Positions 31,819 through 55,534 of a stretch of DNA of 64,000 bases are shown here, piece by piece. The notes under the pieces were generated by a model. The model ran no database searches. It had not been told where the DNA came from and was given only the letters and a program-made list of their open reading frames with translations. The DNA comes from Rhizobium sp. Q54 (GTDB lineage Bacteria > Pseudomonadota > Alphaproteobacteria > UBA2966 > CAIVPW01). Position numbers and translations under genes: made by a program. The DNA lies in contig CAMDPO010000011.1 in the NCBI GenBank assembly GCA_945904955.1, forward strand, positions 259-64,258, written 5' to 3'. The stretch's first letter is position 1. The number at the start of each line of letters is the position of its first letter.

Positions 31819-32097
31819 ATGGACGTGACGAATGCCGTAGATGCCGCGAAGACTTGGTTCAGGGCGACGATGAAAGACGAGAAAATTGAAAATCTCGGCC
31901 TCGAAGAGGTTGAGTTCAACCCTGTGGATCGCGTCTGGCAGATAACTCTGGGCTTTAGCCGACCGTGGAACAGCGTCCGCGACGCAGTCACTACGATCAC
32001 CGGGGAGGCACTCCCCAAGCGGACCTATCGGGTGATCACGCTGCAGGACCATGACGCAAAGGTTCTCGCGATGAAGCGTCGCGAGGCAGCAGAGTAA
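31819..32097 (+). CDS. hypothetical 92-aa protein (putative cognate partner/antitoxin of downstream PIN protein)
   Basis: Lower-GC codon usage. TAA stop directly abuts the GTG start of the PIN gene. Confidence 0.4.
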   Translation: MDVTNAVDAAKTWFRATMKDEKIENLGLEEVEFNPVDRVWQITLGFSRPWNSVRDAVTTITGEALPKRTYRVITLQDHDAKVLAMKRREAAE

Positions 32098-32574
32098 GTG
32101 TCGAAGGTCGTCGCCCTCGACGCCAATCTCGTCGTACTGCTCGTGGTTGGCCTCGCCAACCCGGCGTGGATATCCACCCACAAGCGCCTTCGAGCGTACG
32201 GCACACGAGACTACGATCTCTTGGTGCGACTACTGCAGAACGCCCGAGAAGTAGTGGTAACCCCCAGCGTCCTGACGGAAGCGTCCAACCTGGTCTCCCA
32301 AATCGAAGGCGACCGCAGGACGAAGGTCATGAAAGAGTTCCGCGCCTTCATTGGGAGGACGAAAGAGCTATTCCAGGAAAGCGCGTCAGTTTCGTTAAGA
32401 AAAGAGTTCGTCCGCTTGGGATTGTGCGACTGCGCCCTTCTTGAGTTGAGCAAGGACGACACGGTGGTCCTTTCTGCAGATCTCGATCTGTATTTGGCGG
32501 CCAGCCGCGCCGGGTACACTGCGGTCAACTTTACTCATGCGAGAGTTGAAGCTGGAATTCTGGACCGACCTTAG
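32098..32574 (+). CDS. PIN domain-containing protein (VapC-like putative ribonuclease)
   Basis: Conserved acidic positions consistent with a PIN fold (ALDANLVV D8; TPSVLTEASN; CDCALLE; SADLDL). 158 aa. Lower GC than surroundings. Confidence 0.5.
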   Translation: MSKVVALDANLVVLLVVGLANPAWISTHKRLRAYGTRDYDLLVRLLQNAREVVVTPSVLTEASNLVSQIEGDRRTKVMKEFRAFIGRTKELFQESASVSLRKEFVRLGLCDCALLELSKDDTVVLSADLDLYLAASRAGYTAVNFTHARVEAGILDRP

Positions 32575-34354: not shown

Positions 34355-35086
34355 GTGGTATGCAGAACCGTGACAAAGGACGTGATCTCCGACCTGGTTC
34401 GCGACGGTGATCGCGACCGCTTCTGGTGCGTCCAGTTCGCGCCACCGGCCGCCCGTCCCGCCCTGCTGGCGGTGCTCGCCTTCGCCCTCGAGGTGAACGC
34501 CGTGTCGTCGCGCACCACCCGCGAGCCGATGATGGGCGCCCTGCGCTTCGCCTGGTGGCGCGAGGCTCTCGACGCGATCTTCGCCGAAGGTCGCATCCCG
34601 TCGCACCCGGTTCTGGAGGCGCTCACCGCCGTCGTGCGCACCCACGGCCTGGCGCGCGAACTCCTCGACCAGCTGATCGACTCCGCCGAGATGACCGCCA
34701 CCGGCGGCGCCCAGGATTTCGAAGGCCTGGTCGCCCGCTGCACCACCGAAGGCGCCGCGCCGCTCTCGCTGTGGCTGCGCATCCTCGATGCCGAGAGCCG
34801 CGCTACCCAAGCGGCCGTCACCGCGGCCGGCACCGCCTGGAGCCTGACCCGCCACGCCCACGGCCGCACCGATCGCGACGCGGTGCTGGCGCTCGCTGCC
34901 GAGACCATCGCGCGCGGCCGCTCCCAGCGCCCGGATATATTGGACGCCGCGATCCCGGCGCTGCTGCCGATGCCGCTCGCCGCGCGCTCCCTGCGCCTCC
35001 TGAAGAAGGGCAGGGACCCCGCCGCCGACAACCGCGTCCTGCGCCAGCTCAGCCTGCTCGGCTACGCGCTATTCAGCAGCTACTGA
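34355..35086 (+). CDS. squalene/phytoene synthase family protein (putative; start uncertain)
   Basis: [11 protein letters not shown] motif resembles trans-isoprenyl diphosphate synthase-fold proteins. Weak. Confidence 0.4.
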
Positions 35087-36421
35087 AGCCTCACCGGCCG
35101 CGAGCCACCCACCGAAATCCGCCCGCGCCCGTTTGACCATCGCACTCTTGCGATCGTCCTTGCGCCCGGCGCCCGGCACTTCCGGAAACAACCCGAAGTT
35201 CGCATTCATCGGCTGGAAGTCGCCGATCGACCCAAGGGTGATGTGATTGACCAGCGCGCCCATCGACGTCGTCGCCGGCGGCGCCACCGGCACCGCGCCG
35301 CGCCGCTCGGCCGCGGCGAAGCGTCCCGTCAGCAATCCCATCGCCGCGCTCTCGACGTAGCCCTCGACGCCGGTGATCTGCCCGGCGAAGCGAATGCTCG
35401 GCCGCGCCTTCAGCCGCAGCGTCCCGTCGAGCACCTTGGGACTATTCAGGAAGGTATTGCGATGGATGCCGCCGAGCCGCGCAAAGTTCGCGTCGGCCAG
35501 TCCGGGAATGGTGCGGAACACCCGCACCTGGTCGCCGTACTTCATCTTGGTCTGGAAGCCGACGATGTTGAACAGCGTGCCCAGCGCGTTGTCCTGGCGC
35601 AGCTGCACCACCGCCCACGGCCGCCGCCCGGTGCGCGGATCGTCGAGTCCGACCGGCTTCATCGGCCCGAAGCGCAGCGTCTCGCGCCCGCGCTCGGCCA
35701 TCACCTCGATGGGCAGGCAGCCGTTGAAGTACGGCGTGTCCTTCTCCCACTCCTTGAACTCGGTCTTCTCGGCGGCGAGCAGCGCGTCGATGAACGCCTC
35801 GTACTCGTCCTTGTTCATCGGGCAGTTCAGGTAGTCCTTGCCGCCGCCCTTGTCGTAGCGCGACTGCATCCAGGCGATGCTGCGGTCGACGCTCTCGCCA
35901 TGCACGATCGGCGCGATCGCATCGAAGAACGCCAGCGAGCCCTCGCCCGTCAGCGAGCGAATGCCATCCGCCAGGGCCGGGGAGGTCAGCGGCCCCGTCG
36001 CGATGATCACCGAGTCCCACTCCGCCGGCGGCAGTCCCGCCACTTCCGTGCGCTCCACCGTGACGCGCGGATGGTCCACGAGCGCACGCTCGACTGCTTC
36101 GGCAAACCCGACTCGATCCACCGCCAGCGCCGCCCCCGCCGGCACCCGATGCGCATCCGCCGCGCGCAGGATCAACGACCCCGCCCGCCGCAGTTCCTCG
36201 TGCAAGAGTCCCACCGCGTTGGTGTCCGCATCGTCCGACCGGAACGAGTTCGAGCACACCAGCTCGGCCAGGCTCGCCGTCACATGCGCCTCGGTCTTCT
36301 TCACCGGCCGCATCTCATGGATCACCACCGCCAACCCCGCTTCGGCGATCTGCCATGCGGCCTCCGACCCGGCCAGCCCGCCGCCGACGATGTGGACGGG
36401 TTGGATGGGAACGAGGGTCAT
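35069..36421 (-). CDS. trmFO: methylenetetrahydrofolate--tRNA-(uracil54-C5)-methyltransferase TrmFO
   Basis: FAD-binding N-terminus [16 protein letters not shown]. 450 aa. Confidence 0.9.
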
Positions 36422-37176
36422 GAGTTCGTGCCGCCCGAAAATGGGGAAACGCCAGCGACGCGATTGTGAGCTGTCCGTGTAGCTAGATCCTCTTTGCTCG
36501 GAACTAGCGGGCGGCCATCAAAGATCGGGCGCTGGATAGAGAAATTGTTGCACAGGTGGTCAACGAAAAGTCGGGCGTCTCGGCAAAGGCCATTCGCATT
36601 CTCCAAACAAATCATGGCCTCCGGCGCGGCTGAACGGCCGTCGTTCGATAGCGCAGTGAGTGGTTCCGCGGGCATTCGGTCCGCGGGTACTTTGCGAGCC
36701 ATTGACGCAAGCATTCGGAGCCGCGTGTAAAACTGGATCACCTTTTCCGCTGTTCCGGTTTGGAGCAGCCCGAGGTTGGGCAAGGTCGCCTCATAGACGA
36801 CCGTGTCCTCATCGACCGTGCGTAGGACCTTGATTGCCAGGCGAACAGGCAGGTCTGGCTCAGAGAACATCATCTGCGAATATGCGCCCATGATTTCCGC
36901 CGTCAGCACGACGGCTATTGAGCTGGCCTCGGCCTTGTGCCGCGTGTTCAAGATGTGGAGTTCATGCGCTCGTTGTTGCGCATTGAGATGGACATTTTGT
37001 CGATTCGTTAGCCAGCTGGCCAAGAACGCAGCGCCAATGGCAGAAAGCGCGCTGACGAGCGCGGCTCCCCAGATCGGCGCAGAGGCGGGGTCAAATGCCG
37101 CGGCCAAGAACTGGTCTATCGCCGCAGCGCCGGGCGTTTCCGATACCGGTGGAACCAGTCCGCTCTGGTTGCTCAT
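36418..37176 (-). CDS. hypothetical single-pass membrane protein (252 aa), lower GC
   Basis: Hydrophobic segment [22 protein letters not shown]. Stop overlaps the trmFO start (ATGA). 15-nt gap to the upstream protease gene. Confidence 0.45.
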
Positions 37177-37191
37177 CTTGGTCTCACGACG

Positions 37192-38166
37192 CTATCGCAG
37201 GCCGATCGCGACCAGACCGTTCCCGCGGTCTTCAAAGATGACACTCTCAAGGCCTCCCACGGGTGGGGGAAGTTCACCATCGCGCATCTTCTCGTATAGC
37301 GTGCGATACCGCGTCTCGTCGGTTACAGGCCAAGCGTCCGGAACAAGCAGTCCGAGCGCAGGCCAGATGGCCCCCACAACGGACTCTCCCGCTATCAACG
37401 AATTGTTGGGGGCCTCCACCGGGGAGGCATCGGCGCACACTACCCCGCAGGCGGCAACTGCTTCGCCGTCGCGCCACCGGTAAACGAAACCGCCGCTCAT
37501 TCCGGCTGCGGCGGGTATCGACGTGGTGAAGCACGGCCAAGACCCTAGTCTGTGGCCGTCCGGAAGGTTCGCTGTGACGACTCCCATTCGCACACTTACC
37601 AGACGGTAGACTGACAGCGTCTGACCTCTGCCAGTTGCAGCGTCGGGGGCTCGCGTTTCGTCGAGAGACATGTCTGCGAAAGACACCATTCCAACGCGAT
37701 CACCTACGTCTGGGACAGCCAGATCAAGCGGGATGTGGACCTTGTTGAGCGGTGGGGCCTTCTGGTCCGGCGGCGCTCCAACGATGCACGTAGCGATATC
37801 CAGAGGCTCGTCATAGTAGCCGTGGTAGACGGCAAGCATCGCGCCCTGCTCGCGATCGGGAGTCCACAGCGCGCGCAGCTTGTGCAGCAACGGAGATGGT
37901 CGAGCCTTGTTGAAGAAGATGGCTGAGGCGGCGTGCTTCTGTGCGGATTGCTTCCGCGCCACTCCATCCTCCAACACGTGCTTCGCGGTAAGGGCGACCG
38001 CCCACTGTTCCGTGCCAGTCACGAAGAACCCCGTGCCCTCAAGGGAAGGCTCCTTGGATGGTCCAAAGGCCACGAAAGAAATCAGCGCGGGCCGGAACGC
38101 GTCAATGAGAGGTCCGTTCGATGTCTCGATCCACCACCGACCGCGCCGATCCCCGGGAATAGGCAC
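37192..38166 (-). CDS. trypsin-like serine peptidase (S1 family), cytoplasmic, lower GC
   Basis: Catalytic triad context: His (LTAKHVL), Asp (LDIATC), Ser (GMSGGFVY, GDSGG-like). No signal peptide. Start 7 nt after the uvrA stop. Confidence 0.55.
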   Translation of the reverse strand: MPIPGDRRGRWWIETSNGPLIDAFRPALISFVAFGPSKEPSLEGTGFFVTGTEQWAVALTAKHVLEDGVARKQSAQKHAASAIFFNKARPSPLLHKLRALWTPDREQGAMLAVYHGYYDEPLDIATCIVGAPPDQKAPPLNKVHIPLDLAVPDVGDRVGMVSFADMSLDETRAPDAATGRGQTLSVYRLVSVRMGVVTANLPDGHRLGSWPCFTTSIPAAAGMSGGFVYRWRDGEAVAACGVVCADASPVEAPNNSLIAGESVVGAIWPALGLLVPDAWPVTDETRYRTLYEKMRDGELPPPVGGLESVIFEDRGNGLVAIGLR

Positions 38167-38173
38167 GGCGACC

Positions 38174-41059
38174 CTACGACGCCTTCCGCCGCTTGCCCTG
38201 AATGTCCGTCTTCTGGACCGTGCGCGTCCCCGCGCCGCGCGCCAGCACCGGCGCCAGGTACTGCCCGGTGTAGCTGCCGCTCGTCGCCGCCACTTCTTCC
38301 GGCGTGCCGACCGCGACGATGTGGCCGCCCTTGTTGCCGCCCTCGGGCCCCAGGTCGATCAGCCAGTCGGCGATCTTGATGATGTCGAGGTTGTGTTCGA
38401 TCACCACCACCGTATTGCCGGTCTCGACCAGAGCCTGGATCACCTCGATCAGCTTGCGCACGTCCTCGAAGTGCAGCCCCGTCGTCGGCTCATCCAGGAT
38501 GTACAGCGTCTGCCCGGTGCTGCGCCGGCTCAGCTCGCGCGACAGCTTGATGCGCTGCGCCTCGCCGCCGGACAGCGTCGTCGCCTGCTGGCCGACGTGG
38601 ATGTACCCCAGGCCCACCTTCTGCAGCATCTCCATCTTGTCGCGGATGCTCGGCACCGCGCTGAAGAACTCCGTCGCCTCGTCGATGGTCATCTCGAGCA
38701 CATCGGCGATCGACTTGTCCTTGAAGGTGATCTCCAGGGTCTCGCGGTTGAAGCGCTTGCCCTTGCACACGTCGCACTGCACGTATACGTCGGGCAGGAA
38801 GTGCATCTCGATCTTGAGCAGGCCGTCGCCCTGGCACGCCTCGCAGCGCCCACCCTGCACGTTGAACGAGAAGCGCCCCGGCTTGTAGCCGCGCGCCGTG
38901 GATTCGGGCAGCTGCGCGAACCAATCGCGCATCGGTGTGAACGCGCCGGTGTAGGTCGCGGGATTGGAACGCGGCGTCCGCCCGATTGGCGACTGGTCGA
39001 TGTCGACGACCTTGTCGAGGAACTCCATGCCCTCGATCGCTTCGTGGACGCCCGGCGCATCGCGCGTGCCCATCAGCCGCCGCGCCACCGCCTTGTAGAG
39101 CGTCTCGATCACCAGCGTGCTCTTGCCGCTGCCGGAAACGCCCGTCACGCACGTCAGCGTTCCCAGGGGAATCGCCGCCGACACGTTGGCGAGGTTGTTC
39201 TCCTTCGCCCCGATCACCTTGAGGAACTGCCCGGGCTTGCCCGGCCGCCGGTGCGCCGGCAGCGGCACCTGGCGCACGCGGCTCAGGTACTGCCCCGTCA
39301 GCGACTCCGGACTCTTCAGGATCTTGGCCGGCGGTCCTTCGGCAATGATGCGGCCGCCGTGGATGCCGGCGCCGGGCCCCATGTCGATGACGTGGTCGGC
39401 AGCCATGATCGCATCCTCGTCGTGCTCCACCACGATCACCGTGTTGCCGATGTCGCGCAGGCGCACCAGCGTCGTCAGCAGCCGCGCATTGTCGCGCTGG
39501 TGCAGCCCGATCGACGGCTCGTCCAGCACGTACAAGACTCCCGTCAGCCCCGAGCCGATCTGCGAGGCCAGGCGAATGCGCTGACTCTCGCCGCCCGACA
39601 GCGTCCCCGATTGCCGCGCCAGGGTCAGGTAGCCCAGGCCCACGTTGAGCAGGAACCCCAAGCGCTCGTTGATCTCCTTCAGCACCCGCTCGCCGATCTC
39701 GTTGTGCTTGCCCGACAGCTTCTTGGGCAGTTCATTGAACCACTTGACCGCCGCCTCGATCGACATCGACGACGTGTCGGCGATGTTCATGTTGGCGATC
39801 TTCACCGCCAGCGCCTCCGCCTTCAGGCGGTCGCCGTGGCACGCCTCGCACGGCGCCGTGTTCTGGAAGCGCGACATGTCCTCGCGCGCCCAGTTCGATT
39901 CGGTGGTGCGAAAGCGCCGCTCCATGTTGGGGATGATCCCCTCGAACGGCTTCTTCGAGCTGTACTTGTTGTTGCCCTCGTTGAAGCTGATGGTGATCGG
40001 GTCATCACCCGATCCGTGCAGGATCACGTGCTGCGCGGCGTCGGACAGCTCGCCCCAGGGCGTGCGCATGCTGATCTTCAAATGCCGCGCCAGGCTCTGC
40101 AGCGTCTGCAGGTAGAAATGCGAGCTCGACCGCTGCCATGGCGCGATCGCGCCGTCCTCCAGGCTCAGCCGCGTATCCGGCACCACCAGGTTCGGATCGA
40201 AGAAGATGCGCGTGCCCAATCCGTCGCACACCGGGCAGGCGCCGTACGGATTGTTGAACGAGAACAGGCGCGGCTCGATCTCCTCGATGGTGAAGCCGGA
40301 GACAGGGCAGGCGAACTTGGCCGAGAACACCGTGCGCTCGCCGGTATCCACGTTCTCCGTGAAGATGATGCCATCGGCGAGCCCCAGCGCCTGCTCGACC
40401 GAGTCGGCCAGCCGGTTGCCGAGGTCCGGCTTCACCACGACGCGGTCCACCACGACCTCGATGTCGTGCTTGATCTTCTTGTTGAGCGCCGGCACCGCGT
40501 CGATCTCGTAGACCGTGCCGTCCACCTTGACGCGCTGGTAGCCGCGCTTCTGCAGGATCGCCAGCTCCTTGCGGTACTCACCCTTGCGGCCGCGCACCAG
40601 CGGCGCCAGCAGCAACAGCTTGGTGCCCGCCGGCATCGCGTTGATGCGGTCCACCATCTGGCTCACCGTCTGGCTCTCGATGGGCAGGCCGGTAGCGGGC
40701 GAGTAGGGGATGCCGATGCGCGCATACAGCAGGCGCAGGTAGTCGTGAATCTCCGTGACCGTGCCCACCGTCGAGCGCGGATTCTTCGATGTCGTCTTCT
40801 GCTCGATGGCGATGGCCGGCGAGAGGCCCTCGATCGACTCGACATCCGGCTTCTGCATCAATTCCAGGAACTGCCGCGCATACGCCGACAAGCTCTCGAC
40901 ATAGCGCCGCTGCCCCTCGGCGTAGATCGTGTCGAACGCCAGCGTGGATTTGCCCGACCCCGACAGCCCGGTGATGACCACCAGCCGATCGCGCGGAATC
41001 ACCACGTCGATGTTCTTGAGATTGTGCTCCTTGGCACCGCGGATGGTGATGTTCTGCAT
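38174..41059 (-). CDS. uvrA: excinuclease ABC subunit A
   Basis: Two ABC ATPase modules, zinc fingers, [17 protein letters not shown] start matching E. coli spacing. An in-frame ATG 33 nt upstream (41092) is also possible. Confidence 0.9.
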
Positions 41060-41200
41060 CAGGCTGAGACGTGAGGGTTTGGGCGGCTTCACAAGCGCCC
41101 TTAGGTAGACCGGAACCGGTCATTGTAAAGGTTCGCGGCGACGAATTGCGAATCCCGGACCCACCTATTAGGGTGCTCGAAACTCGCGCGGGGAAATCAC

Positions 41201-54589: not shown

Positions 54590-54660
54590 GGGAGCCTCCG
54601 GCAACGCTACGGCTAGATGTTCATGAAATGTTCACTATGTCAAATGCAGCGCAGTGTGTA

Positions 54661-54724: not shown

Positions 54725-55534
54725 ATGCTCACCCAACACGAATCGTCACGCGGCCGTGATCTGCATATCCACGGCATATCCAATGCGCCCGAACCCCCAC
54801 TCGCCGCCCCGCCGAGCCGCAAGCCGCGCGGCAAACCCTTCGGCACCGATGGCCACTACGGCGGCCGCCCGCCCGGTTCGCGCAACAAGACCACCCTGCT
54901 CGCCGAGTCGTTGCTCGACGGCGAGATGGACAACATCGTGCGCCGCACCATCGACCACGCCATGGCCGGCCATCCCACCGCCATGCGTCTGGTGGTGGAG
55001 CGCCTCGTGCCGCGCCGCAGCCGCCGAGCACCGTTCGAGCTGCCGCCCATCCACACCAAGGACGACGCCATCGAAGCGATGAAACGCGTGCCGGCCCTCG
55101 TCGCCGCGGGCGAGCTCGATGCGCGCGAAGGCGCCTCGCTGGCCGCGACGCTCGACCAGACCTACCGTGCGCTGCAGCACGCCGAGAACAGTGCCCAAGC
55201 CGCAGAACTGATCCGCAACCTCCGGTTCGGGCAACCCACGCAGGAAGAAGAAGTCAGCGCGGAACCGCCGCCGGCCGCCTCCGAACCCGCGGCGGAAGAG
55301 GTGCCCCAGGCCGAGCCCGAACCCGACGCGGTCGTCACTAGCGCCGCCGATGCCGACGCCCTGGAGCTGCCGACCAGCTACATGGACGGCGACGGCGCCG
55401 AGCGCGCCCGCCGCGAGCTCGGCCTCGACCCGCGCGCCGACGGCATGCTCGCCGTCCTGGAGAACCCGGACCTGGTCGCGCCGCGCCTCATTTCCTGGAA
55501 CCGGCAGCGAAGCACGTCCGCAGGCACGGGCTAG
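54725..55534 (+). CDS. DUF5681-like protein (phage-associated; G-R-P-x-G-S-R-N-K motif)
   Basis: N-terminal KPRGKPFGTDGHYGGRPPGSRNKTTLLAESLLDGEMDN resembles DUF5681 proteins of alphaproteobacterial prophage/GTA-like regions. Acidic Pro/Glu-rich middle. Confidence 0.45.
   Translation: MLTQHESSRGRDLHIHGISNAPEPPLAAPPSRKPRGKPFGTDGHYGGRPPGSRNKTTLLAESLLDGEMDNIVRRTIDHAMAGHPTAMRLVVERLVPRRSRRAPFELPPIHTKDDAIEAMKRVPALVAAGELDAREGASLAATLDQTYRALQHAENSAQAAELIRNLRFGQPTQEEEVSAEPPPAASEPAAEEVPQAEPEPDAVVTSAADADALELPTSYMDGDGAERARRELGLDPRADGMLAVLENPDLVAPRLISWNRQRSTSAGTG

Follow-up and report, generated by a model that had tools for sequence, protein, structure and literature searches.

The window analysed here, a 64,000-nt stretch of DNA from Rhizobium sp. 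Q54, carries at positions 36421-38176 a horizontally acquired two-gene islet, inserted at the junction between the core genes uvrA and trmFO. The inserted DNA is foreign, and it encodes a trypsin-like serine protease and a single-pass membrane protein. The best overall explanation, to which we assign a probability of about 0.4, is an acquired islet with a self-sufficient, conflict-type protease and a near-orphan membrane protein. All coordinates are positions of the window and L-numbers are labels of compared loci; the features are collected in Table 1.

The evidence for acquisition comes from alignment of the filled site with empty orthologous sites. A TrmFO scan of 185,579 species-representative genomes yielded 80 alphaproteobacterial loci, with a best TrmFO identity of 72%, and closer relatives (L143-L148) were obtained from the protein database. 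In L143 (TrmFO 97% identical, ~91% DNA identity) uvrA and trmFO overlap by 4 nt, and L144 (TrmFO 95% identical) has the same GTGA junction. In L145/L146 and in L147/L148 (TrmFO 85% identical in each case) uvrA abuts trmFO. Each of these sites is without both genes. At the empty site of L144 the sequence is GGCGTCG/TGACGCTCGTTCCC, and at the filled site in the window it is GGCGTCG/TAGGGTCGCC...GAACTCA/TGACCCTCGTTCCC, where slashes mark the ends of the insert; the boundary is ambiguous by 1 nt (T). The block replaces the uvrA stop (TGA to TAG) and the trmFO start (GTG to ATG), the original GTG being the one that overlaps the uvrA stop in L143 and L144. Both flanking genes are intact because the insert supplies these replacement codons. 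Identity to L143 is even along uvrA and trmFO (~91-92%), and therefore no recombination tract is visible around the insert. The filled site is identical in three independent assemblies, and the protease sequence is exactly the same in all three.

Since uvrA and trmFO are adjacent in all sampled relatives and the codon usage of the block is foreign, insertion rather than loss is the parsimonious direction. The absence of both genes from the empty sites, together with the similar composition of the two, shows that they arrived as a single block. An initial annotation of this DNA had proposed a foreign, lower-GC (guanine plus cytosine) two-gene module wedged between core genes, and had suggested checking whether relatives have uvrA and trmFO adjacent without it; the empty sites bear the proposal out. 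The pattern that it gave as contrary evidence, universal conservation of the genes at this position with native codon usage, was not found: neither gene has a homologue at any of the 80 alphaproteobacterial trmFO loci, and the codon usage is atypical.

Same-strand linkage of uvrA to trmFO is widespread in Alphaproteobacteria. In ~22 of the 80 loci uvrA precedes trmFO in the same orientation, with 0 to ~6 kb of unrelated genes between them. Across the compared intervals (L019-L087), the two genes are directly adjacent in L060, L075, L085 and L087 and elsewhere separated by up to ~6 kb of cargo, mostly of native GC. With intervals ranging from adjacency to ~6 kb of unrelated genes, the junction thus repeatedly accepts cargo.

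The insert is coding throughout and contains nothing besides the two open reading frames (ORFs). Between the uvrA stop (TAG, 38176-38174) and the protease GTG at 38166 there are 7 nt; 15 nt separate the protease stop (37194-37192) from the membrane-gene ATG at 37176; and the membrane-gene TGA (36420-36418) overlaps the trmFO ATG (36421-36419) as ATGA. This packing had been described in the initial annotation and is confirmed in the sequence. The same annotation gave a GC of 57-60% against ~68% in the flanks. The dip itself stands, far outside chance, with 0.58-0.635 over 36.4-38.2 kb versus 0.67-0.71 in the flanks (400-nt windows), but the protease gene, at 62%, lies above that range (per-gene GC 0.624, and 0.590 for the membrane-protein gene). 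Codon usage deviates in the same direction. Against 39 reference genes, which were chosen as window ORFs with typical high GC at third codon positions (GC3), a choice to be borne in mind when reading the z-scores, GC3 has z -7.9 for the membrane gene (0.656) and z -6.9 for the protease (0.686; reference 0.889 +/- 0.030), and the codon-adaptation index is 0.35 (z -5.7) and 0.37 (z -5.5), respectively (reference 0.70 +/- 0.06). The windowed GC and codon-adaptation scan that had been proposed as a check therefore finds both genes strongly atypical (z -5.5 to -7.9), with composition and codon usage unlike those of the host.

Table 1. Features of the uvrA-trmFO junction in the window (aa, amino acids; AF2, AlphaFold2 model).
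Feature	Position	Strand	Basis and remarks
Inserted block, 1,756 bp	36421-38176	minus	filled-versus-empty site alignment
Protease gene, 324 aa, GTG start	37192-38166	minus	Trypsin_2, AF2, Foldseek; GC3 0.686
Membrane-protein gene, 252 aa	36418-37176	minus	ORF; near-orphan single-pass membrane protein; GC3 0.656
Single transmembrane helix, codons ~33-56 of membrane-protein gene	37009-37080	minus	alignment and hydropathy scan
uvrA	38174-41092	minus	ORF; UvrA Pfam domains seen on identical contig; upstream flank
trmFO	35069-36421	minus	ORF; downstream flank

No target duplication, terminal inverted repeats or recombinase gene was found at the insert. A transposon or integron origin was rejected, given the missing target duplication and terminal inverted repeats. 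Like other small genomic islets of one or two genes between core genes, the block has atypical GC3 and codon usage and is polymorphic for presence and absence, and unrelated cargo occupies the same interval in other Alphaproteobacteria. It differs from them in having landed in an overlapping stop/start junction, leaving no intergenic DNA and regenerating both codons, and in being without an integrase, tRNA or repeats. The codon usage is unameliorated, which indicates recent arrival.

Recent arrival and the missing mobility or targeting machinery, target duplication and terminal repeats would also be expected of neutral cargo, i.e. a foreign fragment captured by illegitimate recombination, tolerated since uvrA and trmFO were preserved, and now decaying without a selected role. 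The membrane protein has a sole homologue, whose gene is broken in each of the two assemblies in which it occurs, and protease homologues in two other loci appear split, as decay would predict. In the window, however, both ORFs are intact, with no difference in the protease among the three assemblies, and the host would probably pay a cost for an unregulated protease in its cytoplasm, co-transcribed with uvrA, if it had no use. The conservation of the protease family, described below, is also at odds with inert cargo, and we regard this explanation as unlikely.

A consensus scan identified no promoter-like sites inside the insert, and terminator-like sites there are at chance level. Because the insert is coding end to end, without promoter-like sites or excess terminators, the two genes are most likely transcribed by read-through from uvrA. 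The membrane gene would then be translationally coupled to trmFO. No LexA-type box (GTTC-N7-G(T/A)TC) was found upstream of uvrA, and thus we make no claim of LexA/SOS control.

From its sequence and predicted structure, we conclude that the protease is probably a catalytically competent cytoplasmic serine endopeptidase of an uncharacterised PA-clan subfamily. Pfam Trypsin_2 (PF13365) matches residues 44-238 with 28.3 bits (cutoff 27.6), covering profile positions 1-143 of 144, and it matches all 33 aligned homologues (best E 5.9e-10). The catalytic residues lie in TAKHV (H63, 37980-37978), LDIAT (D123, 37800-37798) and GMSGG (S224, 37497-37495). In the 33-sequence family alignment H63, D123, S224 and the stretch G222-M-S-G225 are invariant, giving the His-Asp-Ser order and the GxSGG motif. 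Also invariant are an N-terminal DPxxRxW, the WPCFTT preceding GMSG, and C240, G241 and A245 in a later ACGVVCAD. The triad plus ~30 invariant positions over 33 sequences at ~40% identity point to strong purifying selection on catalysis, which would not be expected if the gene were merely tolerated.

The AF2 model of the protease is confident (predicted local distance difference test, pLDDT, 89.4; predicted template modelling score, pTM, 0.89). Foldseek returned 214 PDB chains at E<=0.001, topped by uPA, DegS, MucD and V8 protease (1e-7 to 3e-9), and the model has the chymotrypsin-type double beta-barrel. Sequence identity to these structural matches is 11-17%, and searching PDB sequences with the family profile gave none at E<=0.01. 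No signal peptide is apparent by inspection, and the N-terminus is folded into the domain in the model (residues 1-60, pLDDT 86-96). Thus, the initial description of a trypsin-like S1 protease with an intact H/D/S triad and no signal peptide agrees with the profile match, the invariant triad and the PA-clan fold. The 324-residue protein comprises the protease domain and short extensions only, including an unassigned C-terminal extension of ~75 residues, and Pfam identified no PDZ domain at E<=1. Two cysteines, C212 and C240, are invariant and a third, C244, is conserved in at least 90% of the family (window ~37531, 37447 and 37435); in a protein predicted to lie in the cytoplasm, these residues may be structural, bind a metal or take part in redox chemistry.

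The window protease shares the double beta-barrel PA-clan fold, the His-Asp-Ser order and GxSGG with HtrA, DegP, DegS and MucD (S1C) and with V8 (S1B), and these groups supply its Foldseek neighbours. Unlike them, it is without a PDZ domain and is not exported, and it has DPxxRxW, WPCFTTSIP and the C-terminal extension. The combination that defines HtrA/DegP/DegS, a C-terminal PDZ domain with export or a membrane anchor, is not present. DegS and MucD as structural neighbours, and the embedding of the block in the uvrA transcription unit, could be taken to suggest a housekeeping accessory for regulated proteolysis or quality control (HtrA/DegS-like, or processing a membrane anchor) that was recruited to a DNA-damage operon. 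This is very improbable for a protease that has no PDZ domain, signal peptide or membrane anchor and lies in a block missing from all close relatives examined. In addition, the family is sporadic and horizontally transferred rather than lineage-conserved, and no LexA-type box was found upstream of uvrA.

The protease family is small. A search of 5.8 billion proteins gave 97 matches to the window protease, the best non-self match being ~46-48% identical, and a metagenome scan added 48 loci. Family hosts range from 41 to 69% GC and, where named, include Burkholderiales (Ideonella, Piscinibacter) and Rhizomicrobium. The GC of the family gene is below that of its locus in most high-GC hosts (0.54 versus 0.67, 0.56 versus 0.69, 0.49 versus 0.62). 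Neighbours were readable at 50 loci, where up to three ORFs per side were clustered by all-against-all BLASTP. No conserved neighbour of the family emerged over these 50 loci, and sharing occurs only between near-identical contigs. A 254-aa gene following the Ideonella homologue was considered as a counterpart of the 252-aa membrane protein and found to be unrelated. Homologues in L129 (6001-6980) and L134 (5658-7033) are split into truncated or overlapping ORFs, either as pseudogenes or through assembly errors.

Several homologues lie beside genes of defence type, encoding a PifA-like KAP NTPase (E 2e-65), an NsnA/GmrSD-like protein (3e-33), a NucC-like nuclease (8e-15), PDC-S46 (9e-142) and a SIR2-PNTD-like protein. 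In L009 the homologue comes after a gene for a 1,633-aa NACHT protein, in a locus with three tyrosine recombinases, an arrangement that is not general in the family, and IS630-like and Mutator-family transposases adjoin some others. Weak matches to the PADLOC LmuA model occur in 11 of 33 family members (best E 2.8e-5), and to PDC-S45 in 7 of 33. Lamassu, in which a protease-type LmuA acts with LmuB/LmuC, was tried as an assignment and rejected; the window protease matches at E 0.0078, the best family member at 2.8e-5, and there is no SMC-like neighbour. Judged from sequence, the family appears to be a rare, patchy, solitary accessory gene that is often gained and lost, which fits a conflict or defence role.

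The 252-aa membrane protein has no NCBIfam or PADLOC domain and nothing meaningful in PHROGs. A Pfam match to OpcA_G6PD_C (E 0.0056, 17.6 bits versus a cutoff of 27.7) was put down to chance, and there was no other Pfam match. A word-indexed search of 5.8 billion proteins returned only the protein itself, and an exhaustive HMMER search of 1.84 billion representatives identified a sole other gene, 35-42% identical and from another organism, which is represented in two versions, P0099 and P0100. This homologue is solitary, in an islet with a GC of 0.51 where the surrounding locus has 0.64. In L094 (7000-8612) insertion sequence elements (DDE_Tnp_1) at the 5' end disrupt the gene, and in L093 (8001-8870) it is disrupted by ~170 bp of extra DNA after ~codon 172.

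One hydrophobic stretch of ~24 residues, rich in small residues, forms the sole transmembrane helix of the membrane protein. It is also the best-conserved segment, with ~67% identity to the only homologue versus 40% overall by our own count from the alignment. The single N-proximal helix and the absence of a recognisable domain had both been noted in the initial annotation, and the hydropathy scan and the Pfam, NCBIfam and PADLOC searches agree. By the positive-inside rule, basic residues after the helix suggest an N-out, C-in topology, which would place the ~195-residue C-terminal part in the cytoplasm. Structure prediction, which gave a confident PA-clan fold for the protease, gave here a low-confidence model made up entirely of helices (pLDDT 60). 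Foldseek found nothing for it below E 0.1; OspC and designed helical bundles appear at E>0.19 and are uninformative. Among four cluster members there are two population variants in the membrane protein, L204F (window 36567) and S244F (codon 244), and none in the protease. Two amino-acid variants are too few for a within-population ratio of nonsynonymous to synonymous substitution (dN/dS) or for interpretation.

What might the protease do? In the reading that we favour, its gene would be an accessory gene of conflict type, self-sufficient and serving phage defence or abortive infection, a role that we put forward tentatively, with the odds somewhat against it. The enzyme may be an endopeptidase that stays latent in the cytoplasm until a trigger makes it cut a protein of the host or of an invader. 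The protease would be independent of this membrane protein, because the family is kept without it everywhere else. The membrane protein could be a local partner in this lineage, serving as an effector in the membrane or as a substrate facing the cytoplasm, which we think doubtful; otherwise it would be a co-transferred passenger.

Several observations weigh against this favoured reading of an acquired islet with a self-sufficient conflict-type protease. Many homologues sit between housekeeping genes, including rpoD, ClpX/SelB, ClpB/PyrD, P-type ATPase/GreB/RNase R, NtrYX-like, AnmK and chorismate synthase genes, so that the association with defence islands is anecdotal and carries no statistic; by a similarly anecdotal count, a defence or mobile-element context is seen in ~5-6 of ~16 informative loci. 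The window protease belongs to no known defence family, and its own PADLOC match (LmuA, E 0.0078) spans 26 residues. No viral or plasmid relatives were found in IMG/VR with the family alignment, in phage and plasmid collections by tblastn, or in PHROGs, and thus no vector is known. The proposed read-through from uvrA is argued from the absence of other signals. For a local pairing, the record is unfavourable as well: the membrane protein accompanies the protease at none of the 50 protease loci, no protease lies near the membrane-gene homologue at either of its two loci, and that only homologue is solitary and broken in both assemblies.

The initial annotation had likened the two genes to protease-plus-membrane-effector pairs of phage-defence and abortive-infection systems. 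Neither co-occurrence nor homology to known modules supports such a system here: the two families are not found together elsewhere, the partner matches no known effector family, no sensor domain is present and there is no meaningful PADLOC match. The suggestion has weak, indirect support, in that several protease homologues lie beside known defence genes and the two genes arrived as a tight block.

A more explicit form of this idea is a two-gene protease-effector cassette, in which the triggered protease would cleave the membrane protein within its helical, cytoplasmic domain. By analogy with protease-gasdermin, protease-Pepco and protease-EACC1 modules, the cleaved protein might then oligomerise through its small-residue helix and permeabilise the inner membrane, causing abortive infection. 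The genes share a strand and a matching atypical composition, came in together and are separated by 15 nt. The predicted topology places most of the membrane protein in the cytoplasm, where the protease could reach it, and the membrane protein is best conserved in its transmembrane segment. Some protease homologues are found beside defence genes, and proteolytically licensed membrane effectors are an established defence logic (10.1101/2025.11.14.688446). On the other hand, the two families co-occur nowhere else, and the protease-effector co-evolution and the fused or adjacent sensor of known modules are both absent. The membrane protein is unlike gasdermin, Pepco, EACC1 or any PADLOC model, and its all-alpha model is of low confidence. 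Even the closest homologues sampled reach only 40-48% identity, which suggests that the donor clade is unsampled and that the missing co-occurrence is not fully decisive. On balance, a cassette of this kind seems improbable.

Known protease-effector defence modules pair a protease with an effector, as in trypsin-MBL (metallo-beta-lactamase; in Avs2, Hachiman and Lamassu), alpha/beta-hydrolase, Pepco, EACC1 and gasdermin modules, and their hallmarks are co-evolution of protease and effector and a fused or adjacent sensor (10.1101/2025.11.14.688446; PMC12799240). The window pair resembles them in having a trypsin-fold protease gene directly beside a gene for a small non-enzymatic protein with membrane potential, in being a horizontally mobile block, and in the defence neighbourhoods of some homologues and the weak LmuA matches in the family. 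It differs in several respects. No STAND, HamA, LmuA or reverse transcriptase sensor is fused or adjacent, the neighbours in the window being uvrA and trmFO. Nor is the partner a homologue of MBL, alpha/beta-hydrolase, Pepco, EACC1 or gasdermin, and protease and partner neither co-occur nor co-evolve. In addition, the pore former of these modules is soluble and latent, whereas the window partner is predicted to be a constitutive alpha-helical single-pass membrane protein. When the pair was compared with the modules for a known effector family, for co-occurrence or co-evolution and for a sensor, none of the three was found. The likeness is limited to layout, and thus we do not class the pair as a protease-effector module, although it could work like one.

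Lit, a single-gene abortive-infection protease encoded by e14 of E. coli, is a zinc metalloprotease; the T4 Gol peptide triggers it to cleave EF-Tu. The likeness is one of concept: a solitary, horizontally acquired gene for a cytoplasmic protease, as the family appears in most genomes. Lit differs in catalytic class and fold, and no prophage context was seen for the window protease.

Going further, the pair may be an undescribed, sensor-less protease-membrane cassette of abortive-infection type from an unsampled donor clade, with a dosage that follows uvrA expression. More broadly, the ~325-aa family (DPxxRxW...TAKHV...WPCFTTSIPxxxGMSGG...ACGVVCAD) may be a new stand-alone defence protease. 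We consider these proposals speculative and quite unlikely to be correct as they stand.

Two further observations in the window concern other regions. A second low-GC islet at 31819-32574 (+) consists of two abutting small ORFs, of 92 aa and then of 158 aa starting at the next base, with GC3 of 0.70 and 0.69, codon-adaptation z of ~-5 and no Pfam match. Its layout is toxin-antitoxin-like, and the 158-aa protein is PIN-like by eye only. An exact alphaproteobacterial LexA-type direct repeat, GTTCATGAAATGTTC, is present at 54619-54633 (+), ~90 nt upstream of an ORF (54725-55534) with a weak DUF5681 match; window-wide, the count of LexA-type repeats is not above chance.

The established part of these findings is ordinary in kind, namely a small acquired islet whose two genes encode an orphan membrane protein and a trypsin-like protease that is uncharacterised. 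More unusual is the cleanness of the insertion, in which foreign DNA was placed in a 4-nt stop/start overlap of core genes and both codons were regenerated; it provides a natural example of new genes embedding in an existing operon without visible mobility machinery. The protease family is rare, sharply conserved and uncharacterised; it appears to behave as a solitary mobile conflict gene, and some copies lie beside known defence genes. If the family does prove to be a single-gene defence protease, or the membrane protein its substrate, this would be a sensor-less addition to the proteolysis-gated immune modules.

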